This document shows positions 1 to 58,493 of a stretch of DNA of 64,000 nucleotides, one piece after another. Where the stretch lies: assembly GCA_001773695.1 (NCBI GenBank), contig MEXN01000005.1, positions 67,687 through 131,686 of the forward strand, read 5' to 3'. The first letter of the stretch is position 1. Every line of letters starts with the position of its first letter. Under the pieces are notes generated by a model. That model saw only the letters and a list, made by a program, of their open reading frames with translations. It was not told the DNA's origin and searched no databases. Both the position numbers and the translations under genes were made by a program. The stretch comes from Candidatus Amesbacteria bacterium RIFCSPLOWO2_01_FULL_48_25 (GTDB lineage Bacteria; Patescibacteriota; Microgenomatia; CAZETR01; Amesbacteraceae).

Positions 1-40
1 TGGGGTTGGGGGAGTTGGGTCGGGGTCAGATTTTGAGAGA

Positions 41-790
41 GTGGAGGGAAAGTCGAGGGAAGGAGATAGTGTGAGCGGGGTGAGCTTGAAGGATTTACTT
101 GAAGCGGGGTGTCATTTCGGGCATCAGTCCAGGAGGTGGAATCCAGCTATGGCCAAGTATATTTATACGGCCCGGGACGGGGTACATATTTTAGATTTGG
201 CCCAGACTAAAAAAGGGATCGAGGAAGCGGCCAAATATTTGGGCAGCATGGCTTCTGAGGGCCGCGTGATTTTGTTCGTGGGCACCAAGCGTCAAGCCCA
301 GGAAGTAGTTAGGAGGGAAGCGGTGAGACTGGGGATGCCGTATGTGACTGCCAGATGGATAGGGGGGTTGTTGACCAATTGGGAACAGGTGCAAAAGAGG
401 CTGGCTAAACTTGCTGATTTGAAAGATAAGAGGAATAGGGGGGACTTTAAGGTTTACACCAAGCGGGAGCAACTGCTGCTAGACCGGGAGATAGCCAAAT
501 TGGAGAAGTTTTTTGGCGGTGTTTCGACTCTTTCTAAACTTCCTGACGTGTTGTTTGTCGTGGACTCACATAGAGAAGAAGTGGCGGTAAAAGAGGCCAG
601 AAGGATGAACATTCCAGTAGTGGCTCTGGTGGATACCAATGGCGACCCGGCGCTTATTGATTATGTGATTCCGGTTAATGACGATGCGGTAAAATCGGTA
701 GAATTGGTGGTGACCGCAATCGCAGATGCGATTGCAGGTTCCAAGCCACAAATCTCAAGTAACAAACAAGAATCAAGTCCCAATGAATAA
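41..790 (+). CDS. rpsB: 30S ribosomal protein S2
   Basis: GTG start. Translation has the S2 hallmarks LLEAGCHFGHQSRRWNPAM and VVDSHRE...AVKEARRMNIPVVALVDTNGDP. The stop overlaps the tsf start (ATG 783). Confidence 0.9.
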   Translation: MEGKSREGDSVSGVSLKDLLEAGCHFGHQSRRWNPAMAKYIYTARDGVHILDLAQTKKGIEEAAKYLGSMASEGRVILFVGTKRQAQEVVRREAVRLGMPYVTARWIGGLLTNWEQVQKRLAKLADLKDKRNRGDFKVYTKREQLLLDREIAKLEKFFGGVSTLSKLPDVLFVVDSHREEVAVKEARRMNIPVVALVDTNGDPALIDYVIPVNDDAVKSVELVVTAIADAIAGSKPQISSNKQESSPNE

Positions 791-1238
791 AATCTCAATA
801 GAGGACATAAAAAAACTTAGGGAGAAGACCGGGGCGGGAGTGTCCGATTGCCGGGAGGCATTGGAGGAGTCGGGGGGGGATATGAAGAAAGCTGAGGAGG
901 GTTTGCGTAAAAGGGGGATTGAACGGGCGGCCAAAAAGGCCGATCGGGAAGTGAGAGCGGGAGCCGTCTTTTCTTATGTGCATCACACCGGCCGATTGGG
1001 GTCGATGGTGGCTCTGGCCTGCGAGACGGATTTTGTGGCTAAAACCGATGATTTTGTCAAATTAGGTAAAGAATTGGCCTTGCATGTTGCCGCTTCAAGG
1101 CCCGAGAGTGTTGATGTGCTTTTGGGGCAGGAGTACGTGCGGGATCCGGCTAAAAAAATTTCCGATTTGGTAAAAGAGGTGATCGGTAAATTGGGTGAAA
1201 ATATTCAGGTAGTTGATGTCAGGATCGTAGAAGTGTAG
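783..1238 (+). CDS. tsf: Elongation factor Ts (short form)
   Basis: MNKISIEDIKKLREKTGAGVSDCREALEE is the UBA-like N-terminus of EF-Ts, and the gene sits in the conserved position after rpsB. The ORF track starts it at 726, but the ATG at 783 fits the conserved N-terminus. Confidence 0.85.
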   Translation: MNKISIEDIKKLREKTGAGVSDCREALEESGGDMKKAEEGLRKRGIERAAKKADREVRAGAVFSYVHHTGRLGSMVALACETDFVAKTDDFVKLGKELALHVAASRPESVDVLLGQEYVRDPAKKISDLVKEVIGKLGENIQVVDVRIVEV

Positions 1239-1251
1239 ACTAAAGTCCACA

Positions 1252-1806
1252 ATGGATTTGGGGGAAGTGAAGCAAAAGATGCAGGCGGGAGTGGATTATA
1301 CGCGGCGGGAAATGGCGATGATCAGAACCGGGCGGGCAAATCCGGCGCTGGTTGAGAATATTGTCATAAACGCATACGGCGGGACGGCAAAGATGAGGGT
1401 GGTGGAGCTGGGGACTATTTCTGTACCGGAGCCGCAGCAGCTGGTGATTACACCTTACGACCAATCGATAATTGGCGATGTTAGGAGGGATTTGGAGGCG
1501 GCAAATTTGGGAGTGATGCCGGTAATTGATAACGGGGTGATTCGGATGACATTTCCGGCACTAACGACCGAGCGGCGATTGGAATATGTGAAATTGCTAC
1601 ACACCAGGCTGGAGGACGGGAGAGTGAAAATAAGGCAAATTAGGCACGATAAAATGACCGAGTTAAAGAGGCAGTTTGAGGCGAAAGAGCTAACCGAGGA
1701 TGATAGGCATAGGCTGGAGAAGGAACTGCAGGAGCTGACTGATGAGATGATGAAACTGGTTGAGGAGATGGGGAAGATGAAGGAAGAGGAGTTGAAAACT
1801 TTGTAG
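1252..1806 (+). CDS. frr: Ribosome recycling factor
   Basis: 184 aa with the RRF-typical MIRTGRANPALVENIVINAYGG...LVITPYD and a C-terminal coiled coil. It follows tsf directly, with no pyrH between them. Confidence 0.9.
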   Translation: MDLGEVKQKMQAGVDYTRREMAMIRTGRANPALVENIVINAYGGTAKMRVVELGTISVPEPQQLVITPYDQSIIGDVRRDLEAANLGVMPVIDNGVIRMTFPALTTERRLEYVKLLHTRLEDGRVKIRQIRHDKMTELKRQFEAKELTEDDRHRLEKELQELTDEMMKLVEEMGKMKEEELKTL

Positions 1807-1826
1807 ACTTATAGTATAATAGGGTT

Positions 1827-2018
1827 ATGACCAGTGGTGAGTGGTGTAAGCGTAAATATAGAAATTCTGAGTTATCGTTGGGTGCCAGAATTAAGCTGGG
1901 GTTGTTGGCTCTGGCGTTGGCTTGTGGGTATGGTTTGTACAAATTAGGGCCGGATAATTGCAATCATGCGGCGATGTACGGAGATATGTGCCCACCTGCG
2001 ACTTCGCAAAGCAGGTAA
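1827..2018 (+). CDS. Small hypothetical membrane protein (63 aa)
   Basis: One hydrophobic helix (LGLLALALACGYGLYKL) in the frr-rseP gap. Supported only by ORF length and position. Confidence 0.25.
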   Translation: MTSGEWCKRKYRNSELSLGARIKLGLLALALACGYGLYKLGPDNCNHAAMYGDMCPPATSQSR

Positions 2019-2037
2019 TGTCTGATACACTTGGGAA

Positions 2038-3168
2038 ATGGCGACGGGGGTGATATTTTTTGTAGTTCTGTCGATTTTGGTGCTGGTCCACGAATTGGGG
2101 CATTTTATGGCGGCTAGGTTATTTGGGATCGAAGTAGAGGAATTTGCTTTCGGATTGCCGTTTACTAAGCCGATTTTTAAGATCAAAAAAGGGAAGACGC
2201 AGTATGGGTTGTATCCACTTTTATTTGGCGGATTCGTGAGATTAGAGGGGGAAGAGCAGGAGAGTGGAAGAGCAGGAGAGTATAAGGAGGGGTCGTTTTG
2301 GAGCAGGGGAAAGAAACAAAGAATGATGGTGATCGCGGCCGGTGTAGTCATGAACGTGGTCTTGGCTTTGGTTGGATTTGGTGTGTTGTATGCGAGTGTC
2401 GGAGTGCCGGTTAGAAGAGTGGAGCTCGTAACTGTGGTCGAAGTGCAGAAGGATACTCCCGCTGATTCTGCTGGTATTGCCCGTGACGACCGGATTGTAG
2501 CGGTGGAGGGCCGGCCGGTATCTGCTTCCGAGTTTCCCCAATTGATGAAATCCTGGGCCGGGGTGGAGGTACATTTACTAATCGAGCGGGGGAAAGGGAC
2601 ATATTTGTTTGAAGGGATTGCTCCCGGTCCGGTGGAGCAAAAGATCGTGGCCATTGTGCCCCGGGCCAACCCTCCGGAGGGACAGGGATCGATAGGAGTT
2701 CTTATTTCCAATTATCCGTATCTGGAAACAATAAAATGTTCAATGTCTAATGTTCAATGTTTAGTATTGGCAGCGGGAAAAGGGGTAGAAAGCACGGTGA
2801 TTTGGGCGGGGAGAGTGTTCGACGGCTTACGGAGTATTGGAAAAAGCTTGGTGGCGGGGAAGGCGCCTGAGGGGGTGTCGGGACCGGTAGGGATTTACCG
2901 ATTGGTGGATGTGGTGGCTGTGGGCGGGTTTTGGCCGCTTTTGGAGTTGACGGCAATATTGTCTGTTAACTTGGCTGTATTTAACGTTTTGCCCATTCCG
3001 GCGCTGGACGGAGGACGGATGATATTTATCTGGTGGGAATGGGTGAGGAAAAAGAGAGTGACACCTGAGTTGGAGAGAAAAATAAATTCCTGGGGAATGG
3101 CTTTTTTGATAGGTTTACTTGTCCTAATTACGCTTCAGGATGTGATTAGTGGAGGGTTGGGGAAGTAG
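2038..3168 (+). CDS. rseP: RseP-type site-2 zinc metalloprotease with PDZ domain
   Basis: HELGHF (HExxH) in TM1, a PDZ-like middle region, and a C-terminal LDGG motif (LPIPALDGGRMIF). Conserved position downstream of frr. Confidence 0.8.
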   Translation: MATGVIFFVVLSILVLVHELGHFMAARLFGIEVEEFAFGLPFTKPIFKIKKGKTQYGLYPLLFGGFVRLEGEEQESGRAGEYKEGSFWSRGKKQRMMVIAAGVVMNVVLALVGFGVLYASVGVPVRRVELVTVVEVQKDTPADSAGIARDDRIVAVEGRPVSASEFPQLMKSWAGVEVHLLIERGKGTYLFEGIAPGPVEQKIVAIVPRANPPEGQGSIGVLISNYPYLETIKCSMSNVQCLVLAAGKGVESTVIWAGRVFDGLRSIGKSLVAGKAPEGVSGPVGIYRLVDVVAVGGFWPLLELTAILSVNLAVFNVLPIPALDGGRMIFIWWEWVRKKRVTPELERKINSWGMAFLIGLLVLITLQDVISGGLGK

Positions 3169-3180
3169 CAAGGGATAAAT

Positions 3181-3579
3181 CTATTTCTGTCTCCGGTAAA
3201 CGGGAAGCTTGGGAAGGCCATATGCTACAGATCTAGTTTCGTCCAGAAGTCTGTCCATGAGATTACCGGTTCGTTTCATCACTTTCGGGTCGGGGTCTTG
3301 TGGGTTCAGTGTAGGATCAATATATTGTGATTCTTGGTGCCGTCTTCCATATTCAGTCATTATTTCCTGGTAGTCCTGGGAGCTAAGCCCTGGGAAAGGT
3401 GGACCGAGTTGGGTGAGGTAGTGGGCGAACAAGCTAAGCATGTTTTTTAGATGGATCTGGGCTCTTATTTGATCTTCGGGAGACATCTCACCGACTTGTT
3501 TAGTCATGTATGCTACTTGGCCTTCGAAAATATTTACGACTTTTCGGGGATCAAGAGTTTCTCTGATGTTGAGCGGCAT
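3181..3579 (-). CDS. Hypothetical protein
   Basis: 132-aa ORF convergent with rseP. Balanced composition, no recognised motif. Confidence 0.4.
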   Translation of the reverse strand: MPLNIRETLDPRKVVNIFEGQVAYMTKQVGEMSPEDQIRAQIHLKNMLSLFAHYLTQLGPPFPGLSSQDYQEIMTEYGRRHQESQYIDPTLNPQDPDPKVMKRTGNLMDRLLDETRSVAYGLPKLPVYRRQK

Positions 3580-3620
3580 AATTTAGAAATTATAGGGTAA
3601 TTTGGTAAAATGTCTAGGTT

Positions 3621-3827
3621 ATGGATGGAGGTCAGATGTTTTTAGTTGGGATGGGGCTGTTGACAGTGGCGGTAGTGGTGGGAGTGGGGTTGAAGGTGGG
3701 GGAGTTGGAATTGAGGCAGGAAAAGGAGAATAGATGGTATCGAGAGAGAGCTCACGTGGTTACTGATAGCTCTGAAATGCTTAGAGGGTTGCAGGCTAAA
3801 AGGGCAGAAGGAGCTGAGAAGGAGTAG
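3621..3827 (+). CDS. Hypothetical small membrane protein
   Basis: 68 aa with an N-terminal TM helix (MFLVGMGLLTVAVVVGVGL). Confidence 0.3.
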   Translation: MDGGQMFLVGMGLLTVAVVVGVGLKVGELELRQEKENRWYRERAHVVTDSSEMLRGLQAKRAEGAEKE

Positions 3828-3834
3828 TTAATAT

Positions 3835-4233
3835 ATGACCAGGGAACTGGAAGAGTTAATTGGTAATGAGGTCGAACCGAAGTATAGGAGAAAGTCGATT
3901 TACGATGCGGTGGTGATTGCCTATAAAAGACGAGAGCATGGGAGGCGGATTAATAACTTGATGTCAGAGCGGGGGATTACCATGCGTCAGGTGACTGGTC
4001 AGATGGAGGTGGATGTGGAACGGGAGGTGGCGAGAATGTTTATTGAGGTGGTTATGACCGGGAGGCGGGAGAGGGAATATTTAAACGTGGCGGCGGCGAC
4101 AAATTTGGCGGCAATGACACCGGAGCAGATTCAGGATTTGCATAGCATTGGGCCGGTTAAGGGGCCGATGGTGTACCGAGCGTTACAGAGGTGGTCTGAA
4201 CTCCATGGGGGAGGTCAGGCTGAGACTGAGTGA
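3835..4233 (+). CDS. Hypothetical protein
   Basis: 132-aa ORF starting 8 bp after the previous ORF. No motif recognised. Confidence 0.4.
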   Translation: MTRELEELIGNEVEPKYRRKSIYDAVVIAYKRREHGRRINNLMSERGITMRQVTGQMEVDVEREVARMFIEVVMTGRREREYLNVAAATNLAAMTPEQIQDLHSIGPVKGPMVYRALQRWSELHGGGQAETE

Positions 4234-4579
4234 GGTGGAAGATATTTCTATCGAAGCAGACGGAAAGAGTTTGTCCCCTGAATGTGTATGAATGTGATTT
4301 GCCGTCTTCGACTTCTGCCATCCAGGGAGAGTATGGTTTGCCGGTCTTTTGATAAATTGTATAGAGAGTGACATAAGGGTGGGGGTGATTGTATAAATCT
4401 TTGTAGAAGTCGGGGAGGAGGAGAGAAGAGTCGTTTAGAAAATGGGGTTTTGTGGTTTGGAGGGGAATACCAGTACAGCTGGATGGAGAAAAAGGGAAGG
4501 CTTGGACGGGGGAGGTAATGCCCAATAGGGCAAGTGCGATGGCGAGGTAGATGTGGAGGTGGCGGATTTTTTCTGGCAT
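4157..4579 (-). CDS. Hypothetical secreted protein
   Basis: N-terminal signal peptide (IYLAIALALLGITSPVQA). Overlaps the 3' end of the preceding + strand ORF. Confidence 0.35.
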   Translation of the reverse strand: MPEKIRHLHIYLAIALALLGITSPVQAFPFSPSSCTGIPLQTTKPHFLNDSSLLLPDFYKDLYNHPHPYVTLYTIYQKTGKPYSPWMAEVEDGKSHSYTFRGQTLSVCFDRNIFHLTQSQPDLPHGVQTTSVTLGTPSAP

Positions 4580-4767
4580 TTCTGAGCTGATTATATACCC
4601 ACAAAGAACTTGTTAATAGGCAACAAAAATCCTATACAAATAATGTTGAACTAGCGCAATATTTACTAGTGTCTGGATATATATAGTAACTACTTTTTAT
4701 AAGCCCGGGGGGGCGGGGTGTAAGACCGAAGATTGAACGAAAATGTTGGATTTTGGAAAATTGATTG

Positions 4768-4796
4768 TTGACCGGAAAATTTTGGGAGATTATGAT
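4768..4796 (+). promoter_or_regulatory. Sigma70-like promoter of galU (TTGACC-17-TATGAT); -10 ends 7 nt before the ATG
   Basis: TTGACC at 4768-4773, a 17-bp spacer, TATGAT at 4791-4796, and the start codon at 4804. This implies a leaderless or near-leaderless transcript. Confidence 0.4.
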
Positions 4797-4803
4797 GCGG
4801 TGA

Positions 4804-5685
4804 ATGGCAAAGGTTCGTAAGGCGGTAATTCCAGCGGCGGGGTTTGGGACGCGGTTTTTACCGATGACCAAGGCCAGTCCCAAAGAGATGCTGCCGGTCG
4901 TGGACAAGCCGATTATCCAGCGGGTAGTGGAAGAATTGGTGGGAGCGGGAATAGAAGACATTATTATCGTCACCGGTTATCATAAGCGCAGTATCGAAGA
5001 TCACTTTGATGCGCCGTCTTCGGAGTTGACACAGATGTTGAAAAATAAACCAGAGATGCTTTTGAAAGTGGAAAAGATAGGTAAATTGGCTAATTTTGCC
5101 TATGTGCGGCAAAAGGGACCGTATGGCAACGGGACGCCACTTCTCAACGTGCGGCATTTGGTGGGTAACGAGCCGTTTATTTATACGTGGGGGGATGATT
5201 TTGTCGAGGCGGCGCCGGTCACCAGATTTGCCCAGATGGTTGAGTGTTATGAGAAGTATGGAGCGACTACTTTAAGTTGTATCCGGGCGACTCGCAACCA
5301 GGACTATGTGAAATATGGATTTGCATCGGGAAAAAAGTTGGCGGAGGGGGTAATTGAGGTGGAAAAGATTGTGGAGAAACCGGGGAAGGAGAATGCTCCT
5401 TCAGATCTGGCTACGGTAAGCGGATTTCTGGCGGCGCCTGAGATATTTGAATACGTGGATCAAGCGGCCTCTGGTTTGCAGCCGGGACATGAGTTTTACT
5501 ACAATGATGTATTGAAGCTGATGCTTTTAGCGGGTAAAAAGATCATAGCCCGGGAAATTGAAAACGCCAGGTTTTATGACACTGGGGATAAACTGGATTA
5601 TTTGAAAGCGGTTGTCGAATTTGGGATAAAGCACGAGGATATCGGGGAGGAGTTTTCCAAATGGATCGGAGGGCTAAAAGTATGA
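4804..5685 (+). CDS. galU: UTP--glucose-1-phosphate uridylyltransferase
   Basis: N-terminal AVIPAAGFGTRFLPMTKASPKEMLPVVDKP is the nucleotidyltransferase signature of GalU. Length 293 aa. Confidence 0.85.
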   Translation: MAKVRKAVIPAAGFGTRFLPMTKASPKEMLPVVDKPIIQRVVEELVGAGIEDIIIVTGYHKRSIEDHFDAPSSELTQMLKNKPEMLLKVEKIGKLANFAYVRQKGPYGNGTPLLNVRHLVGNEPFIYTWGDDFVEAAPVTRFAQMVECYEKYGATTLSCIRATRNQDYVKYGFASGKKLAEGVIEVEKIVEKPGKENAPSDLATVSGFLAAPEIFEYVDQAASGLQPGHEFYYNDVLKLMLLAGKKIIAREIENARFYDTGDKLDYLKAVVEFGIKHEDIGEEFSKWIGGLKV

Positions 5686-5858
5686 AGAACAAGGAGAGGG
5701 AGCGGTTGGAGATATTGAAGGAGAATTTGGAGGTAAGTCAACGAGAACTGGATGCGGCTATAGGGTCCGGAGCGGTTGGTTGGGCCAGGGAATTTGCGAA
5801 AAAGGTAAAAAATGTCAAAAGACAGTTACTGGGAAGGAAAAATAGGCGCAAGGTCTGA
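5661..5858 (+). CDS. Hypothetical small basic protein
   Basis: 65 aa, Lys/Arg-rich. Overlaps the galU 3' end. Confidence 0.25.
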   Translation: MDRRAKSMKNKERERLEILKENLEVSQRELDAAIGSGAVGWAREFAKKVKNVKRQLLGRKNRRKV

Positions 5859-6162
5859 TATGGAATTTGATCCGGGAAAGCCATATGTGGAATCGGAAGA
5901 TACAGTGAGGTTGACGTGGAGAGATGGGTGGATTAGGAATGGAGTGTGGAGAGTGAGTATAGAGGACTATTTGACTTTTGTGCGGGATGTGGGGTTGATC
6001 TCATGGGGGTGGATGATGAGGTTGGTCCAACCGGAAGTTGGTGATTGGATCTTACCGGTACCAATTATAAGGAATGGGCGATTGCATAGGATCTTGTTTG
6101 ACCAAAGAGAAGCTGAGGAGAAATTGGTGATGTATGAATCTAGTGGACCAGAGCAGGGGTAG
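5812..6162 (+). CDS. Hypothetical protein
   Basis: 116-aa ORF, no motif recognised. Confidence 0.35.
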   Translation: MSKDSYWEGKIGARSDMEFDPGKPYVESEDTVRLTWRDGWIRNGVWRVSIEDYLTFVRDVGLISWGWMMRLVQPEVGDWILPVPIIRNGRLHRILFDQREAEEKLVMYESSGPEQG

Positions 6163-46831: not shown

Positions 46832-48151
46832 ATGGCAGAATTAAAAGTGCCGCCGCATTCGATTGAGGCTGAGAAGTCGGTATTGGGGGCGTGTCTTTTG
46901 GATCGGGATGCGGTCGTAGAGGTGGTGGAGTTTTTGCGGCCGGAACACTTTTATGAGGACAAACACGGGAAGATATTTGAGTCGATAGTGGATTTATACC
47001 AGGCTCGTGAGCCAGTAGACGTGGTGTCCGTGGCGGAAACGCTGAAGAAGAAAAAGGCCTTGACGGCAGTCGGCGGGCAGGCGTATCTGACCGAACTGGT
47101 AAATAATGTGCCGACGGCGGCTCACGCCCAGCATTACGGACAACTGGTGCGGGACCATTTTACGAAGCGGCAGTTGATCTCGTCCGCTGCTCAGATTTCG
47201 GACATGTCGTTCGACGCATCTGCCGATGTGAAGCAGATTTTGGATACTGCCGAACAGAAAGTGTTTTCGCTGTCCCAGCAACATTTAAAGCAAGTGTTTG
47301 TGCCGGTTAAGGAAATTTTGTCCGAGTCATTTGATCGGCTGGACGAGCTGCATAAAACTGCTGGGGCGCTACGAGGAGTGCCGACGGGATTTTCTGATTT
47401 GGATGATACATTGGCTGGAATGCAGGATTCAAACCTTCTTATTCTGGCTGCCAGGCCAGGGGTGGGGAAGACGGCATTGGCTCTGAATATTGCTCAAAAC
47501 GCCGCATTTGGGTATAAGCAGCCGGTTGGATTTTTCTCACTTGAAATGAGCCGGGAGGAGTTGATGGATCGACTTTTGGTATCCCAGGCGGAAATTGACG
47601 CTTGGAAAATGAAAACAGGAAATTTGGAGGAAGGAGAATTTGACCGGTTGTCCCGGGCAATGGGGGAGCTATATGAGACACCGCTTTTTATAGATGATAC
47701 GCCGGGGGCGTCGATATTGGAGATGAGGACCAAGGCCAGACGACTACAGGCGGAGCACGGATTGAGGCTGGTCATTGTTGATTACTTGCAGCTAGCCCGA
47801 CCGGTTCGGAATTTGGATAATAGGGTGCAGGAAGTATCGGAAATTTCCCAGGGATTAAAAAATTTGGCTCGGGAACTCAAAGTGCCAGTACTGGCTTTGT
47901 CCCAATTGTCCAGGCAGGTGGAGTCCCGCGGGGTGAAAAGACCCCAGCTAGCTGATCTAAGGGAGTCGGGAGCGATTGAGCAGGATGCGGACGTGGTGAT
48001 GTTCATGTGGCGGGAAAACGATGAGGATTTGGAAAATATGACTTTGGATATTGCCAAACACAGAAACGGTCCACTACGCTCTCTTAAACTGCGCTTCCGT
48101 GGCGACAGGATCAAGTTTTATGGAGTGGAGGGGAAGAGGAAGGGGGAGTAA
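46832..48151 (+). CDS. dnaB: Replicative DNA helicase
   Basis: N-terminal PPHSIEAEKSVLGACL, Walker A ARPGVGKTALALNIA, Walker B LVIVDYLQL, and the arginine finger region. Its last 39 bp are duplicated at 48827-48865. Confidence 0.9.
   Translation: MAELKVPPHSIEAEKSVLGACLLDRDAVVEVVEFLRPEHFYEDKHGKIFESIVDLYQAREPVDVVSVAETLKKKKALTAVGGQAYLTELVNNVPTAAHAQHYGQLVRDHFTKRQLISSAAQISDMSFDASADVKQILDTAEQKVFSLSQQHLKQVFVPVKEILSESFDRLDELHKTAGALRGVPTGFSDLDDTLAGMQDSNLLILAARPGVGKTALALNIAQNAAFGYKQPVGFFSLEMSREELMDRLLVSQAEIDAWKMKTGNLEEGEFDRLSRAMGELYETPLFIDDTPGASILEMRTKARRLQAEHGLRLVIVDYLQLARPVRNLDNRVQEVSEISQGLKNLARELKVPVLALSQLSRQVESRGVKRPQLADLRESGAIEQDADVVMFMWRENDEDLENMTLDIAKHRNGPLRSLKLRFRGDRIKFYGVEGKRKGE
48113..48151. 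repeat. Direct repeat copy 1 (39 bp, the dnaB 3' end: AAGTTTTATGGAGTGGAGGGGAAGAGGAAGGGGGAGTAA)
   Basis: Matches 48827-48865 at 37 of 39 positions. Confidence 0.9.
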
Positions 48152-48164
48152 TTATTTGTCACCA

Positions 48165-48201
48165 TTGACAGGGTATGAAAGTATGATAGTATGAAAGTAT
48201 G
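48165..48201 (+). promoter_or_regulatory. Promoter/operator of the inserted TA cassette: TTGACA (48165-48170) -16- TAGTAT (48187-48192), with direct repeats GTATGAAAGTATG at 48173-48185 and 48189-48201
   Basis: Shares TTGACAGGGTA...TAGTAT-6nt-ATG geometry with the promoter at 18115-18150. Confidence 0.45.
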
Positions 48202-48441
48202 GATGATGTGATAGTAATGCTCCAACCCAGGGGACAGATAACGGTACCTAGGAGATTCAGGGTCAAATATGGTTTTGGTCAGGGCCCGGTAAGGGTGAGG
48301 GATGTGGGTGGTGGGGTGATGATAGAACCAGTGACGATTTTGAAATATCGAGTGAGAAGATATAGCGATCAGGAAGTGGACGAGTTTTTGAAGCTGGACG
48401 AAAAGGAAAGTCGGGAGCTGAAAAATGCGGGTATTATTTAA
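48199..48441 (+). CDS. AbrB/SpoVT-family antitoxin
   Basis: PRGQITVPRRFRVKYGF...VRV matches the swapped-hairpin motif. It overlaps the toxin start. Confidence 0.65.
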   Translation: MDDVIVMLQPRGQITVPRRFRVKYGFGQGPVRVRDVGGGVMIEPVTILKYRVRRYSDQEVDEFLKLDEKESRELKNAGII

Positions 48442-48865
48442 CGCCTCGGTAATTATTGCCGGGGTTGGTTCTCCGGCCGGAGGGTCTGGGGCGGCTTTAG
48501 AATTGGCAAAGCGAGGTAAGATCGTGGGGATTGTATCTGAACTTATTGTGAATGAAGTGGTAAGTCACGCCGGAAAGGTGAAAAAGGACGAAGTGGAAAT
48601 GCAAGCGATAGTTGTGGAGACTTTTCGTGAAGTAACTCTCGCTCCGAGTAAGTCGCAGGTTGAAAAACAAGCTGTTCATGTGACGGATCCCGGGGATGCT
48701 CATATTTTGGCGACCTACATGAATGAAAAATGCGACCTGCTTATCACTTTGGACAAGAAACACCTGTTGGTTTTGCAGGGTAAGTTAAAGGGGGTGGAGA
48801 TTTTGACCCCCGGCCAGCTTATTGGGAAGTTTTATAGAGTGGAGGGGAAGAGGAAGGGGGAGTAG
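48425..48865 (+). CDS. PIN-family toxin-like protein
   Basis: 146-aa ORF with acidic residues placed for a PIN-like fold (LFNASVII, DAHILAT, LITLDKK). Its C-terminal 13 residues are a copy of the DnaB tail. Confidence 0.55.
   Translation: MRVLFNASVIIAGVGSPAGGSGAALELAKRGKIVGIVSELIVNEVVSHAGKVKKDEVEMQAIVVETFREVTLAPSKSQVEKQAVHVTDPGDAHILATYMNEKCDLLITLDKKHLLVLQGKLKGVEILTPGQLIGKFYRVEGKRKGE
48827..48865. repeat. Direct repeat copy 2 (39 bp), immediately abutting the tRNA-Leu 3' end
   Basis: AAGTTTTATAGAGTGGAGGGGAAGAGGAAGGGGGAGTAG. Confidence 0.9.
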
Positions 48866-48950
48866 TGCCGGGGGAGGGACTCGAACCCACACGAGCGTTT
48901 CGGCTCACTGGTTTTTGAGACCAGCCTGTCTACCATTCCAGCACCCCGGC
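48866..48950 (-). tRNA. tRNA-Leu (anticodon CAA), class II with a long variable arm, no encoded CCA
   Basis: Folded by hand: a 7-bp acceptor stem (GCCGGGG/CCCCGGC) with discriminator A, a 3-bp D stem, the anticodon stem CUGGU/ACCAG with loop CUCAAAA, a variable arm GAGC-CGAAAC-GCUC, and the T arm GUGGG-UUCGAGU-CCCUC with one U-U mismatch. Confidence 0.8.
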
Positions 48951-49167
48951 CGATATTGCTTATTTTAGCTTTTGGGGCGTAAAATTGCCAGGTTATGAGA
49001 GAACGAGAAGTTGTGACAAGAAGACTTGATATATTGCCCGTTGGGTTTGGGTTGGGTATAGCTTTTGTTGCTAAGGGTGAGACATGGCTGGTCAGAGTGA
49101 CTAAAAATGAGGGGGTGAGTTACATTCGGAGATTAATGAATGCGGATGCGGGAGAGGTGAAGAAAAA

Positions 49168-49725
49168 ATGATCGGGGTGCAGGATATTAGGAATGGGACG
49201 GCGTTTCTTTTGGATGGGCAACCATGGGTGGGCCTTAAATACGAGCACATCAAAATGGGCCGGGGGTCGGCAACGATTAAGATCAAGATGCGGAATTTGT
49301 TGACCGGGGCGATTGTGGAAAAAGCGTTTATCAATTCAGCTCGGGTAGAGGAGATTAATTTGGCGAGAAAGCCGATGCAATACCTGTACAAGGACCAGGG
49401 GTATGTATTCATGGATCCCAGAACATATGAACAGGTGGTTCTTCCGGCAGATGTGGTGGCTGAGTCGCTGGGTTATTTGAAAGAGGGAATAGTAGTCAAC
49501 GTTTTGTTTTGGGATGAGCGGGCGCTCCTGTTGGAACTACCGCCAAAAATGTCATTTACTGTCGTGGAGTGCGACCCGGGGATAAAGGGTAACTCTGTGG
49601 CCAACCTGTATAAACAAGCGCTTTTGGATAACGGGATGAGTGTGAGGGTGCCGCTTTTTATTGAGGTGGGGGACGGAGTGGTAATTGATACGCGTGATGG
49701 AAGTTATGCGGAGAGAGTGAAATAA
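49168..49725 (+). CDS. efp: Elongation factor P
   Basis: 185 aa with three OB-like domains (KMGRGSA...IKMRNL). Preceded by an SD-like GGAGAGGTG. Confidence 0.9.
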   Translation: MIGVQDIRNGTAFLLDGQPWVGLKYEHIKMGRGSATIKIKMRNLLTGAIVEKAFINSARVEEINLARKPMQYLYKDQGYVFMDPRTYEQVVLPADVVAESLGYLKEGIVVNVLFWDERALLLELPPKMSFTVVECDPGIKGNSVANLYKQALLDNGMSVRVPLFIEVGDGVVIDTRDGSYAERVK

Positions 49726-50402
49726 TGGATAAGTTGGCGAGTTTAACAATTGTACAGTCGATTAGTAGTGTTGCGGGGGTTTTTGCTGGGGGATTTTGGG
49801 TGTGGAAGAGGATGCGGGCAGAATATGAAAGTGAAAAAATATTGTCACTTCTGGCCAGAGTAATAGTTGGAGCGATAGTTTTTGGAGGTGTGAGCTACTT
49901 TGTGATATATAGAAATTTGGGCGTATGGGTGTGGGGGACGGTTGCTGGGGCCGGGGTAGCTGTGTATTGGTGGTGCGTGAATTCGGAGTGGGACACGTGG
50001 GAGTGGTTGGACGGGTTGACGGCAGGAGGGCTGGTAGTCGGAACTGTAGTGGCGCTGGCGGGGCTTAAGTGGCAGCAGGCGGTAGGATATGGTGTGGGAG
50101 TGGGAGTGGTGGCGGTGTTGGCCGGGGTACATCGGAGATGGCGATGGTATGTGAGTGGGAAACCCGGGTTGGTGGGTCTAATTGGCTTGATGTGGTTGGG
50201 ATTGGTGCAATTGCTGGTTGCAAACCGCAACAATGACGGTTTATACTGGGGCGGCTTTGAGCTTTCACAGTGGATCGGTTTGTGGGTAGTGGTGGCCTGC
50301 ACTGTGGTAATATATTTGCGTGGGGGACGGAGAGTTACGCAAGATGCGTATAACTTATGGCAAAAGACGAAAATAATAAAAAAAAGAAGTCATCGAGAGT
50401 GA
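49725..50402 (+). CDS. Hypothetical polytopic membrane protein
   Basis: Gly/Val/Trp-rich TM segments. Confidence 0.45.
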   Translation: MDKLASLTIVQSISSVAGVFAGGFWVWKRMRAEYESEKILSLLARVIVGAIVFGGVSYFVIYRNLGVWVWGTVAGAGVAVYWWCVNSEWDTWEWLDGLTAGGLVVGTVVALAGLKWQQAVGYGVGVGVVAVLAGVHRRWRWYVSGKPGLVGLIGLMWLGLVQLLVANRNNDGLYWGGFELSQWIGLWVVVACTVVIYLRGGRRVTQDAYNLWQKTKIIKKRSHRE

Positions 50403-50761
50403 TCAGATACCCTTGGGAGGTGCTGGAGCCGGTGAGGAGATATTTGGGAGAGAGGCTGGCTACGCTGGAGAAAAGAAAGAGGGCGGTTTCTGAGGCGGAT
50501 CCGTTTCGGGATAAGAGCAGACTGGATGACAACGCGGCTATTGATGCAGATGCGGCGGAACAAGTGGGGCATATGCAGGCGTCGGCCATTCGCCAAGTGC
50601 TCGACCGGAGTATTATCCAGGTAAGAAAGGCTATGTCTATGATGAAGATTGGTAAGTATGGTGTGTGTGAGAATTGCGGGAAAATGATAGACACCGACCG
50701 GTTGATGGTTATGCCGGAAACGACCTTGTGTGTGGGCTGTGAGAAAAAGAGAGAGAAATGA
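50357..50761 (+). CDS. DksA/TraR-family C4 zinc-finger protein
   Basis: C-terminal CENCGKMIDTDRL...CVGC is a four-Cys zinc finger after a helical region. The start may be internal. Confidence 0.6.
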   Translation: MAKDENNKKKKSSRVIRYPWEVLEPVRRYLGERLATLEKRKRAVSEADPFRDKSRLDDNAAIDADAAEQVGHMQASAIRQVLDRSIIQVRKAMSMMKIGKYGVCENCGKMIDTDRLMVMPETTLCVGCEKKREK

Positions 50762-51462
50762 AGATAATTTTTGAAGATGAATGGATCTGCGTGGTGGACA
50801 AGCCGGCGGGGGTAATAGTGAATGATTCGCACACATCCGGCGATACATTACAAAGCTGGTTTGCAAAAAAAAATAAGATTGAGAGGGACGACACGGAATT
50901 TGGTTCTAAGCAAGGCGTGGTGCACCGGTTGGATAAAGACACCAGTGGAGTAATGATATTGGCCAAAACCCCAGCGGCTTACGAAAAAATGAAATATCAG
51001 TTTCTCGAGAGAAAAGTTGTGAAAGTATATTTGGCTTTGGTGCATGGGATTATGAATGAGAGAGAGGGGATTGTGAGCATGCCTGTTGTTAGGAACCCTA
51101 AAAATAAAATGAAATTCACAGTCGGAAATGATCTATCCCGGACGGCAGTCACGCAGTGGAGAGAGATTCATAGGTACAAGGGCATAGGGGAGCAGAGCTT
51201 TAGTCTGTTGGAGATAAGACCGATGACGGGAAGGACTCACCAAATTAGAGTACATCTGAAGCATTTGGGTCACCAAATCGTGGGAGATCCCATTTATGGA
51301 GGGAAACGGTATAGAGAGGATGTGGCGTGGTGTCCCAGATTGTTTTTACATGCCAAGTCCTTGGGATTTGTACATCCGGGTACTGGTGAGGAAGTTGAAT
51401 TTGAGGCGCGGATCCCTGCGGCGCTTGAGAGGGTGTTGGCAAACTTGGTACACTTGAACTAA
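50758..51462 (+). CDS. rluA: RluA-family pseudouridine synthase
   Basis: Catalytic HRLDKDTSG motif and RTHQIRVHL. Confidence 0.8.
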   Translation: MKIIFEDEWICVVDKPAGVIVNDSHTSGDTLQSWFAKKNKIERDDTEFGSKQGVVHRLDKDTSGVMILAKTPAAYEKMKYQFLERKVVKVYLALVHGIMNEREGIVSMPVVRNPKNKMKFTVGNDLSRTAVTQWREIHRYKGIGEQSFSLLEIRPMTGRTHQIRVHLKHLGHQIVGDPIYGGKRYREDVAWCPRLFLHAKSLGFVHPGTGEEVEFEARIPAALERVLANLVHLN

Positions 51463-53162
51463 TGGCGTACGAATCGATAGGGGTTTTGGCGGGGGTGTTG
51501 ATACTTTCCGCAGTCGGGGGGGCGTTGGCTAGATGGATGAGACTGCCTGTTATAACTGGCTATATTTTGGTGGGGGTGATGGTGGGATGGATAGGATGGG
51601 CGGCAAATCCTGGGGTTCGAAATTTACTGGGACTGATGGGGCAAATGGGAGTGATGTTCCTGCTGTTTTTGGTGGGATTGGAGTTGCCCGTGTCTCAGGT
51701 GAAGAAGATGGGGAGAGCGGCACTTTTATCTGGAGTGGGACAGATAGCAGTAACTTCGGGTTTGGGATTCTTTTTGTCCCGCCTTTTGGGGTTTGGGATA
51801 GCAGCGGCTTTGTATTTGGGAGTAGCACTGACGTTTAGCAGCACGATAATAATAGTAAAGCTGCTTTCGGAGAAGAGGGAATTGAATAGCTTGCATGGGC
51901 GGATTGCCGTGGGATCGCTTCTGGTACAGGATTTTGTGGCCATAGGTATTTTGATTGTGCTTTCCGGGGTGGGCAGATTTGACGGTGTGGGAGTGGCGGC
52001 TTTGTTAATAAAAGGGACGGCAGCGGTAGCAATTGGTCTGGGTCTGGCTGACAAAGTTTTGCCGTGGGTGGCTCGGAAGTTGTCAACTTCGGTTGAGGTG
52101 TTGTTTATTTTTTCTATTGCCTGGTGCTTGGCTGTCGCTTGGGTGGCGGCATCCAAGTGGGTGGGTTTGTCACTTGAGATCGGAGGGTTTTTGGCGGGAT
52201 TATCGCTCGCTCATGCTGCGGCTCATTTTCAAATCACGGCCCGGATTCGTCCCCTGAGGGATTTTTTCCTGACTCTATTTTTTGTGGTACTGGGGACTCA
52301 AGTAAGTTTGGAGTCTTTGGGATCTGTTTGGTGGCCGGCTATGGTACTGGCACTTTATGTGATGGTCGGGAACCCGTTGATAATGGTGTGGGTTTTGACC
52401 GGGTTGGGCTATGGTAAACGGACTGCGTTTTTGGCCGGAATAACTATGGGTCAGATCTCGGAATTTTCCCTGGTGGTAGTGGCGGCGGCTGTCGCGGCCG
52501 GACAAGTGCCGCGGGAAGTAATAGGGGTTGTGACCGTGGTAGGGCTGGTTACGATGACGACAGGTAGTTATGTGGTGGCAAATTCCGAGAAAGTTTATAG
52601 AAGAATAAGTAAGTACTTGCCGGTTTGGCCAGGGAAGGGCAAAAAACAATCGCCTCTTGAACTTTCGGGGGAGGAGCTAGTTGGACACGCAATCCTTTTT
52701 GGCCATAGTCGAACTGGATCGAGTTTGGGCAAATCTTTGGCCACATTTGGGAGATTGGTTGTCGTTGATTTTGATCCGGTGGTGGTGGAGAAGGCCAAGA
52801 GTGAGGGGTTGGACGCGATCTTTGGGGACATGTCCGACCCGGAATTGTATGAAAGTTTGGGGTTGGATAGGGCTAGTGTGGTGGTGTCGACAGTGCCGGA
52901 TTTGAGTGATACCCTGCAACTACTTAGGGTACTGCGCCCGGAGGGAAAAAGGGGAGGGAAGAAGCAGCTGGTGATAGTGACGGCCGTTGACAGCGGGGAC
53001 GCGAAAGAGTTGTACAGGGCGGGTGCGGATTATGTGTTGGTGCCGCATAGCGTGGGCGGGGATTTTCTGGCGCAGATATTGGACCGTCACAAGCGGGATA
53101 TGGAGTACGTGGTGAACTATGGCAAGTTACATTGGAATTGGTTGGTGGCAAATGCGGTTTAG
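51462..53162 (+). CDS. Monovalent cation:proton antiporter (CPA2/Kef-type) with a C-terminal RCK/TrkA-N domain
   Basis: About 12 TM helices, then a Rossmann-like domain (GHAILFGHSRTGSSLGKSL). Confidence 0.75.
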   Translation: MAYESIGVLAGVLILSAVGGALARWMRLPVITGYILVGVMVGWIGWAANPGVRNLLGLMGQMGVMFLLFLVGLELPVSQVKKMGRAALLSGVGQIAVTSGLGFFLSRLLGFGIAAALYLGVALTFSSTIIIVKLLSEKRELNSLHGRIAVGSLLVQDFVAIGILIVLSGVGRFDGVGVAALLIKGTAAVAIGLGLADKVLPWVARKLSTSVEVLFIFSIAWCLAVAWVAASKWVGLSLEIGGFLAGLSLAHAAAHFQITARIRPLRDFFLTLFFVVLGTQVSLESLGSVWWPAMVLALYVMVGNPLIMVWVLTGLGYGKRTAFLAGITMGQISEFSLVVVAAAVAAGQVPREVIGVVTVVGLVTMTTGSYVVANSEKVYRRISKYLPVWPGKGKKQSPLELSGEELVGHAILFGHSRTGSSLGKSLATFGRLVVVDFDPVVVEKAKSEGLDAIFGDMSDPELYESLGLDRASVVVSTVPDLSDTLQLLRVLRPEGKRGGKKQLVIVTAVDSGDAKELYRAGADYVLVPHSVGGDFLAQILDRHKRDMEYVVNYGKLHWNWLVANAV

Positions 53163-57530: not shown

Positions 57531-58493
57531 ATGAATGACGAGGTTCCCCAGAAGTCAAAAGTGAGATTACCCTACTTTGATGAATTCCTCTTATTTCTCA
57601 AGACCCAAAACTATTCCGAAGAAACTTTGTATAACTACGAGGCGGATTTAAAACAGCTGGAACATTTTTTAGAAGAAGAAGAAATTGACTTTCTAGCCTT
57701 GAATAAAGAAAAGGTTAACCATTATAAGGCGTATCTGGTCAGCCGGGAGCGAAAACAGCCGTTTACGGGGCTTACAGCGGGTCGTAAGCTTGAAGCGAGA
57801 TCGGTAAATCGCAACTTATCGACCTTTAGGACTTATTTGCGATATCTCATCGATATGGATCGGAAGGTTCCGGTGCCGCCGGATGCAGTAAAGTTGGTGA
57901 AGACAGATAAGAAACACCCGCAAGTGGCGGAGCTGGCTGAACTAATTTCTCTTATCGAAAGTCCGATGCGGCTTGAGAAAGATCAATTGATTGGGATTCG
58001 CAATCGGGCGATGCTCGAAGTTTTGTTATCCACCGGGATGCGAATTTCGGAACTGGTGTCACTTAATAAAAACCAGCTAGATGGTACGGGTAGATTGTTT
58101 ATCCGCGGTAAGGGACGCAAAGAGAGGTTTGTTTATTTGACCGACAGGGCGGTGTATTGGCTGAACCAATACTTAACCCGAAGGGTGGATCCGGCGCCGG
58201 CGATGTTTGTGCCGTACCGGGGGAATAATGCTGGCAAAATGATTAGGCGGATTTCCACCAATTACTTACAAGCGAAAATTAAGGAGTACAGGGAGAAACT
58301 AAGGATAAATGTACCAACCTCGGCTCATTCGTTGAGACATGGGTTTGCAACTTATCTGGCGGAAAGTGGTGCAAACCCGGCGGCAATACAGGTATTGTTG
58401 GGTCACGAATCTTTGGATACTACAACTCGTTATGTCCATGCGTCGGATAAATTTGCTGAAGAGACGCACCGAAAATTTCATCCGGTAAAATAG
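57531..58493 (+). CDS. xerC: Tyrosine site-specific recombinase (XerC/XerD family)
   Basis: Catalytic residues in context: R in RNRAMLEVLLSTGMRISEL, HSLRHGFAT, and LLGHESLDTTTRYVH, which contains the catalytic Tyr. Confidence 0.8.
   Translation: MNDEVPQKSKVRLPYFDEFLLFLKTQNYSEETLYNYEADLKQLEHFLEEEEIDFLALNKEKVNHYKAYLVSRERKQPFTGLTAGRKLEARSVNRNLSTFRTYLRYLIDMDRKVPVPPDAVKLVKTDKKHPQVAELAELISLIESPMRLEKDQLIGIRNRAMLEVLLSTGMRISELVSLNKNQLDGTGRLFIRGKGRKERFVYLTDRAVYWLNQYLTRRVDPAPAMFVPYRGNNAGKMIRRISTNYLQAKIKEYREKLRINVPTSAHSLRHGFATYLAESGANPAAIQVLLGHESLDTTTRYVHASDKFAEETHRKFHPVK

Follow-up and report, generated by a model that had tools for sequence, protein, structure and literature searches.

Behind the replicative helicase gene dnaB of Candidatus Amesbacteria bacterium RIFCSPLOWO2_01_FULL_48_25, an uncultured bacterium from groundwater, lies a small toxin-antitoxin (TA) cassette whose toxin gene ends in a copy of the end of dnaB. 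The locus was analysed within a stretch of 64,000 nucleotides (contig MEXN01000005.1, positions 67,687 to 131,686), hereafter called the window, and all coordinates without a locus name are counted from its first letter. Judged from the loci compared here, compact cassettes of an antitoxin and a PIN toxin accumulate behind dnaB in this group of bacteria, singly or in pairs, and each of them has a copy of the dnaB tail at its end, so that dnaB always keeps an intact end.

In the window, dnaB (46832..48151, plus strand) encodes a protein of 439 aa that matches TIGR00665 with 527 bits as well as the Pfam domains DnaB and DnaB_C, the latter stopping at residue 429. Its last 12 codons and stop codon (KFYGVEGKRKGE and stop; 48113..48151, plus strand) supply the intact dnaB 3′ end and are found again at 48827..48865 on the same strand, in frame with the toxin and abutting the 3′ end of a tRNA gene. 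Direct reading and a repeat finder both gave a direct repeat of 39 nt, AAGTTTTATGGAGTGGAGGGGAAGAGGAAGGGGGAGTAA, with two mismatches between the copies at 48113-48151 and 48827-48865 and a start-to-start distance of 714 nt; the mismatches are a G>A at position 10, which changes Gly to Arg, and a change of the stop codon from TAA to TAG. The two copies are the only ones in the window, and no match was obtained in 100 shuffles. The tRNA gene is tRNA-Leu(CAA) (48866..48950, minus strand; ARAGORN; Rfam RF00005, 54 bits), which is convergent with dnaB and forms the right border of the site. Since its discriminator base is placed at 48866 by Rfam and at 48865 by ARAGORN, the second tail copy touches the tRNA 3′ end with a gap of zero. 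The repeat with its two mismatches, the tail common to dnaB and the PIN open reading frame (ORF), and the position of the second copy at the tRNA-Leu 3′ end had all been described in an earlier, sequence-only reading of this DNA, and all three were reproduced.

In eleven loci from independent assemblies (ENA, JGI and NCBI, made with differing assemblers) both copies are present, with the two mismatches and the spacing unchanged, and the seven loci that were compared base by base are identical across 48113-48950. An assembly duplication as the source of the repeat is ruled out by the agreement of these eleven assemblies. The unit had also been taken for a small mobile cassette; no evidence of current mobility was found in this population, all assemblies read from it having the one arrangement, with neither an empty allele nor a second copy, and exact-protein look-ups of DnaB and EF-P returned no empty-site allele from the same population.

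Toxin cassettes with a DnaB tail, one or two behind dnaB, were found in at least five other Amesbacteria lineages, the tail copies standing at the toxin ends in loci L049, L050, L051, L052, L053 and L054-L056. Three toxin families are tailed in this way, namely PIN_3, a VapC accompanied by a Phd antitoxin, here VapC(a), and a VapC accompanied by an AbrB antitoxin, here VapC(b), for which only three homologues were found. The array of L049 consists of dnaB (ending in KFYPVETKRKSS), an AbrB-type antitoxin with a PIN_3 toxin (ending in KFYPVETKRKS) and a Phd-type antitoxin with an unrelated VapC (ending in GLKFYPVETKRKSG), each end being followed by the stop codon, that is, three tail copies and two toxin families in one array. 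The same cassette order is found in L052. The pattern of the window is repeated in L051 with that locus's own tail (43 nt, 88% identical, spacing 694), L053 presents dnaB followed by a tailed Phd-VapC(a) pair, and L054, of which L055 and L056 are independent assemblies, presents dnaB with the window's KFYGVEGKRKGE tail, Phd-VapC(a) with a truncated tail and AbrB(103 aa)-VapC(b) with a full tail. All tail copies begin exactly at the AAG of AAG-TTT-TAT (K-F-Y), finish at the stop codon and are in frame with the toxin; the copied dnaB segment comprises the last 12-13 codons, and the TTGACA promoter of the next cassette lies 1-22 nt past the tail stop. Four of 72 PIN_3 homologues, with 52-56% identity, also have DnaB-like ends (KFYPVETKRKS, KFYPVETKRKTN and KFYSEDKKRMRE), on contigs built in the same way, and 67 of the 72 members listed end about 10 residues earlier than the window toxin, without a tail. 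Altered toxin tails occur as well: G>R in the window, K>R in L054, G>W in P0122, KFYVVEV and stop in cassette 1 of L054, and RFYNG and stop in L002.

These arrays modify the earlier picture of a small mobile cassette with target duplication. An inserted TA cassette that regenerates dnaB and leaves its tail on the toxin is retained, while the cassette of the window is one of a recurrent set of arrays with three toxin families and not a single 714-bp element. A metagenome scan for a DnaB-type tail followed by TTGACA gave only single-tail loci with other cargo (an NYN-domain protein in L057, a retropepsin-like pair in L058, and L060), and the viral and mobile contigs of IMG/VR that were scanned for the tail and the PIN_3 family gave chance matches or none. 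A longer dnaB 3′ fragment, of about 105 nt (35 codons, AKHRNGP...KFYSVDRKRKDS and stop), is found before a PIN_3 cassette at 95-205 of L050, preceded by a tRNA-like fragment instead of the remaining dnaB; the length duplicated from dnaB can therefore differ from 39 nt.

The cassette of the window begins 13 nt past the dnaB stop with a predicted promoter, TTGACA-16 nt-TAGTAT with a TG-extended -10 (48165..48192, plus strand). The antitoxin ATG lies only 7 nt downstream of the -10, so that the mRNA is likely leaderless. A putative operator of three overlapping GTATGAAAGTATG repeats with 8-nt spacing (48173..48201, plus strand) covers the -10, and these repeats are kept across the cassettes with the common AbrB-type antitoxin N-terminus. 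The cassette head, TTGACAGGGTATGAAAGTATGATAG, recurs in cassette 2 of L054, with related heads in L002, L051 and L049; in L054 and L002 this head and the MDDV..LQPRGQ antitoxin N-terminus precede a different toxin. The antitoxin, of the AbrB/MazE/SpoVT type (80 aa; 48199..48441, plus strand), overlaps the toxin start by 17 nt. Taken by itself it matches Pfam MazE_antitoxin with E=0.11, below threshold, while a profile of seven homologues matches the AbrB regulators 5itm, 5itj and 2l66 at 3e-5, and PF04014 was matched by six of the seven.

The toxin gene (48425..48865, plus strand) encodes a PIN_3-family protein of 146 aa (PF13470, 7e-13, residues 2-112) that ends in GKFYRVEGKRKGE, its last 13 residues (KFYRVEGKRKGE preceded by a shared K) being encoded by the second repeat copy. 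The AlphaFold2 model has a pLDDT of 89.6, and its confidence drops along the C-terminal extension to below 50 for residues 140-146. The PIN_3 profile had no match among PDB sequences, and a fold search was used instead, in which the model aligned with VapC/PIN structures at TM-scores of 0.6-0.7 (Foldseek). In the sequence alignment of 30 members of the PIN_3 subfamily, looked at for the four acidic active-site residues expected of a VapBC-like toxin, E44, D88/D91 and D110 are invariant, and so is an asparagine (N6, motif FNASV, toxin residues 5-9, window 48425-48450; 30/30) where the first catalytic Asp is expected; the subfamily with FNASV may represent an altered or inactive nuclease. The cassette would act as an ordinary type II TA module, in which the antitoxin would repress the GTATG-repeat operator and neutralise the PIN RNase. 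The gene calls of the sequence-only reading, which had given the unit its own promoter, an AbrB-type antitoxin and a PIN toxin, hold at the family level, given the predicted promoter, PF13470, Foldseek and the AbrB profile.

The convergent arrangement of dnaB and tRNA-Leu(CAA) is conserved across Amesbacteria and neighbouring candidate phyla, with synteny in at least 25 relatives; the closest relatives in the genome collection have DnaB proteins 79-86% identical to that of the window. In five related genomes (L017, L031 and L025-L027) the site is empty, with the dnaB stop about 1-5 nt from the tRNA 3′ end, as had been predicted for an insertion at a site that is unoccupied in relatives, and the DnaB tail (KFY[GS]VE.KRK..) is also kept in relatives having empty sites. 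The junctions of other relatives hold 95-3212 nt of varied, unrelated cargo, including small membrane proteins, glmS, a FecR-like protein, an NYN nuclease, a retropepsin-like pair, a run of eight small ORFs and TA pairs of several types. The empty sites and the varied cargo together indicate that the dnaB/tRNA-Leu(CAA) junction is an insertion hotspot between genes that originally abut within a few nucleotides. A duplication of the dnaB tail was found in none of 36 species representatives. In the classical sense the insertion is not targeted to the tRNA, the repeat being free of tRNA sequence.

Several further features were observed around this junction. Tail copy 2 of the window is flanked by an 8-nt perfect inverted repeat (CCCCCGGC at 48807-48814 and GCCGGGGG at 48867-48874), the arms of which fall in the toxin TPGQ codons and in the tRNA acceptor stem and possibly match by chance. 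GC skew is very high and positive throughout (+0.25 to +0.45 per 4-kb window over 1-64000), even at minus-strand genes (about 40-46 kb), which agrees with the purine-rich dnaB tail. The gap between dnaB and tRNA-Leu in L015 (5305-8518) holds eight consecutive minus-strand ORFs of 107-127 aa, several of them alike, and a perfect 20-nt palindrome, CCTGCCTGCCGGCAGGCAGG, lies between the dnaB stop and the cassette promoter in L002 (3832-3886). Fragments resembling the last ~19 nt of tRNA-Leu (GTGCCGAGGG.GGGAGTC) are present in L049 (~5700-5790), L051 (~1110-1200), L047 (~2634-2700) and L050 (30-62); they sit a few tens of nucleotides from the intact tRNA-Leu 3′ end, with a spacer conserved between L049 and L051, and have the look of remains left by integrase-type events at the tRNA.

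Locus L047 (GCA_001792545.1, MGGT01000015.1; locus 1-6121) is 99-100% identical to the window from the tRNA-Leu anticodon arm rightwards (window 48864-52408), while its tRNA 3′ half, its cargo (a GT2 glycosyltransferase) and its dnaB (67% nucleotide identity) all differ. Since the identity is confined to the outermost 3.4 kb of a 96-kb contig, which was assembled from the same study site, L047 is likely a chimera joined within the conserved half of the tRNA rather than the product of a crossover inside tRNA-Leu, and it was left unused as evidence. Between the 99-100% identical blocks an indel separates the two, with ~144 nt at 50981-51124 of the window against ~24 nt in L047, in or near a dksA/traR-like gene.

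The nucleotide sequences of the tails bear on their origin. Between genomes, cassettes are 63-78% identical at the nucleotide level, compared to 75-84% for dnaB and 75-80% for its last 540 nt. The tails group by genome or genome group and not by cassette type, and tail DNA differs at up to 12/33 nt between array-bearing genomes. When the toxin tails were compared with the local dnaB tail within genomes, 15 synonymous and 5 non-synonymous codon differences were counted, where a decaying local duplicate would be expected to show a non-synonymous share of 0.67 (p=1.2e-4). In L049 the Ser codon of the middle tail is AGT and that of its dnaB TCT, and the tails t1 and t2 differ at 5/33 nt; in L053 the toxin tail has GGG (Gly), as in the window and L054, and its own dnaB has TCG (Ser). 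On account of the synonymous bias and of these codons in L049 and L053, the tails resemble dnaB ends that once belonged to other strains. A fresh target-site duplication, the origin that the sequence-only reading had proposed for the repeat, is improbable, given that tails elsewhere are not exact local copies (15 vs 5, p about 1e-4; the foreign GGG codon of L053).

In the DnaB tree the genomes with arrays are spread over two clades or more, among genomes in which the site is empty or holds unrelated cargo. L049 and L051 are 92% identical over the 128 nt of dnaB that precede the tail and 70% identical in their cassettes, with a differing array content. All observed arrays fit one order, PIN_3 followed by VapC(a) and then VapC(b).

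Two cassettes stand straight after dnaB without a tail, a PIN_3 cassette in L016 and a Phd-VapC(a) cassette in L070. The L070 toxin ends in GLKFYQ (AAGTTTTATCAATAA), its native end being AAGTTTTAT-CAA-TAA, the first 9 nt of which are the same as the start of the dnaB tail; many members of the VapC(a) family end natively in GL[KE]FY. These toxins therefore carry, in frame, the 9 nt that open the dnaB tail. Among PIN_3 toxins some native ends are EKFVC or SKFR and most are LS. PIN_3 cassettes without a tail were also found elsewhere (L061, 3744-4423, and L063, 3754-4453), between the convergent housekeeping genes BipA and Lon in the metagenome-assembled genome from which L002 comes and, in another lineage, between the convergent pair dNK and DHFR, and at neither of these insertion sites of the same TA family was a duplication of the upstream gene end found. 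Both are arranged with a conserved TTGACGGAAATACGG head after the upstream stop and a toxin 3′ end that overlaps the 3′ end of the convergent gene.

The reading that we tentatively favour, with a probability of about 0.4, is recombination that has its anchor in dnaB and uses the K-F-Y microhomology AAGTTTTAT as its joint, that is, homology-facilitated illegitimate recombination (HFIR), a process in which a RecA-dependent anchor is combined with a microhomology of 3-10 bp (PMC6382021). Natural competence, which could be set beside it, has been demonstrated for the patescibacterial phylum Saccharibacteria (PMC10187176, PMC10633639). Cassettes would be added on the dnaB-proximal side by recombination, without a cassette-encoded enzyme. 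Incoming DNA would derive from a related strain in which dnaB already has a cassette behind it, a donor state represented by L070 and L016, and would pair with the recipient through the long dnaB homology. Its far end would be joined at the short K-F-Y microhomology that is native to the VapC(a) C-terminus (...GL-K-F-Y), whereby the 3′ part of the recipient's dnaB would be replaced by that of the donor and the recipient's old tail would be left on the incoming toxin. Once tails are repeated, tail-by-tail recombination would allow whole cassettes to be deleted or transferred. The model would account for an intact donor dnaB end, a cassette right after its stop and a toxin in frame with the old tail, which would keep its original right-hand neighbour, the tRNA in the window and the head of the older cassette in L049 and L052.

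This reading was chosen because of the empty sites, the varied cargo, the conserved synteny, the exact K-F-Y starts and the synonymous bias of the tails, and because the arrays lack a recombinase, the tail lacks a hairpin or dyad, and tail-less homologues elsewhere lack a duplication. In its favour are also L070, which shows the predicted donor state with a 9-nt microhomology, and L016 as the tail-less PIN_3 equivalent. A joint of 3-10 bp is present in full for VapC(a) and in part for PIN_3, some members of which end in ..KF...

A number of points weigh against it. The recombination event itself is inferred and not directly seen, and the shifts of nearest neighbours along dnaB in a sliding-window mosaicism scan stay within noise. 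The native microhomology of PIN_3 is partial (some EKFVC/SKFR, most ...LS), and an identical left boundary in three toxin families would equally suit a site-specific enzyme. Divergence is no lower in the cassettes (63-78% identical) than in dnaB (75-84%), which does not point to a recent transfer; the single fixed order (PIN_3, VapC(a), VapC(b)) would also be expected from the differential loss of one old array. Finally, competence is known from Saccharibacteria (PMC10187176, PMC10633639) and not from Amesbacteria.

The site-specific enzyme is the core of a possible, though rather unlikely, alternative in which the dnaB tail serves as an attachment site for a recombinase acting in trans and integrase-less units flanked by such sites integrate serially. 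The absence of an integrase from the unit, which had been remarked on before, held for the window cassette; the sole recombinase among the 30 window ORFs scanned is a XerC/XerD-like tyrosine recombinase of 320 aa (57531..58493, plus strand; PF00589 at 4.5e-34, with a SAM_1 domain) located 8.7 kb from the cassette. This enzyme scores 195 bits on the NCBIfam model for XerC and 189 bits on that for XerD, under the equivalog cut-offs for XerC, XerD and XerA, and 60 bits on the integron-integrase model, which has a cut-off of 265; it is a candidate trans-acting enzyme only, and its link to the cassette is hypothetical. Apart from the presence of this Xer-like protein, the exact and identical boundaries in three toxin families and at least six lineages speak for such an enzyme, as do the array architecture, the L053 tail imported with its cassette, the tRNA-Leu 3′-end remnants beside the tRNA in L047, L049 and L051, which point to past integrase-type events at this place, and the well documented integration at gene 3′ ends with tandem accretion (PMC5704250). 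It is opposed by the arrays themselves: no recombinase was found in any array or junction cargo examined, and no intI beside the arrays; no integrase-bearing parent element was found at the dnaB/tRNA-Leu site in about 45 loci, a limited sampling, nor anything relevant in IMG/VR, where no viral or mobile contig scanned bears the tail or the toxins. The tail contains no inverted repeat or dyad that could form a core, and attC-like folding was rejected, since the minimum free energy of the tail regions is 0 to -2.3 kcal/mol and the z-scores are positive for either strand. A dif or terminus site, as used by elements of the IMEX type, was likewise rejected, the GC skew showing no sign change in the window and the tail no dif-like dyad. 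The difference of up to 12/33 nt in tail DNA between array-bearing genomes and the ~105-nt fragment of L050, which makes the duplicated length variable, are equally awkward for an attachment site. A stronger form of the same idea, which we regard as improbable, is that the last 13 dnaB codons might be the recombination site of an unrecognised gene-capture system of Patescibacteria, run by a chromosomal recombinase and capturing PIN-toxin cassettes.

Ongoing gain would not be needed at all if a single ancestral array (PIN_3, VapC(a), VapC(b)) had been inherited vertically and differentially lost, with its tails kept dnaB-like by gene conversion. That the cassettes are as diverged as dnaB or more, that every array is a sub-sequence of one order and that the arrangement is fixed in the window's population would suit this history, which is nevertheless improbable: arrays in at least two DnaB clades among empty sites and unrelated cargo would require many precise losses, the tails group by genome yet are not homogenised (5/33 nt between t1 and t2 of L049, TCT vs AGT), L016 and L070 have such cassettes at this very locus without a tail, and L049 and L051 combine 92% identity over the 128 nt before the tail with 70% in the cassettes and a differing array content. 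Selection might instead maintain the reading frame because the DnaB peptide is functional on the toxins, for instance as a shared degron or as a partner-binding tag tying the toxin to the replisome. Tails that are intact in most toxins and differ mainly at synonymous positions could be expected of such a peptide; we consider it quite improbable, as some toxin tails are truncated or carry non-synonymous changes (window G>R, L054 K>R, P0122 G>W, KFYVVEV and RFYNG ends), the last tail residues are modelled at low confidence, and the synonymous bias is equally explained by former dnaB ends. The model implied by the sequence-only reading, a target-site duplication through a transposition-like staggered cut 39 nt apart, draws on the near identity of the two window copies and their position directly flanking the insert, and is the one to which we attach the least credence. 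Neither terminal inverted repeats nor a transposase were found for the cassette by the repeat finder and the window ORF scans, 39 nt far exceeds known target-site duplications, the tails of other genomes are not identical local copies, and cut-and-fill would not be expected to fuse three toxin families in frame at one and the same codon.

Mobile elements and gene capture are poorly known in Patescibacteria (candidate phyla radiation), the genomes of which are very small. The locus described here shows a repeatable way to stack TA cassettes behind an essential gene without damage to it, and the former dnaB ends on the toxins form a readable record from which recombination between strains could be traced. 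Should HFIR be confirmed, it would be a natural and recurrent case of a process that has mostly been described from laboratory transformation; a dedicated recombinase would imply a new cassette-array system, and the gene-capture reading an integron-like one without adjacent integrase or hairpin sites, in which toxin C-termini are encoded by the recombination site itself.

No published description of this arrangement was found in full-text literature searches, and it appears to be new within known kinds, namely 3′-end integration with regeneration of the target and cassette arrays. As a TA module the cassette resembles VapBC type II modules, in which a PIN-fold toxin follows an overlapping AbrB/MazE- or Phd-type antitoxin gene behind a promoter that bears direct repeats, but its toxin bears a foreign 12-residue C-terminal extension copied from DnaB, and its PIN_3 subfamily has an invariant Asn at the position of the first catalytic Asp. 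With HFIR it shares a one-sided homologous anchor and a microhomology, which predict a donor dnaB end, a cassette and a toxin linked through AAGTTTTAT to the tail that the recipient had before; HFIR is, however, known from laboratory transformation, and no account was found of a recurrent natural route by which it builds ordered arrays. Cis-mobilizable elements (CIMEs) and tandem accretion, as described for ICESt1/ICESt3 at fda (PMC5704250), offer an integrase-less unit between direct repeats that hold the target gene 3′ end, a regenerated target gene and units that stack at one site. Unlike CIMEs, the units behind dnaB are of about 0.7 kb and contain only a TA pair. Their repeat is read as the toxin C-terminus, and a core-type dyad is not recognisable in it; the site yielded no relative with an integrase, and the gene that serves as target is the dnaB of Patescibacteria. 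Integron arrays, including the TA cassettes of chromosomal integrons, are similar in their small cassettes with own promoters, a same-type end repeat and a fixed entry point, but differ in having intI and attC hairpins, while the arrays described here comprise one or two cassettes and use as their repeat the coding sequence of an essential gene.

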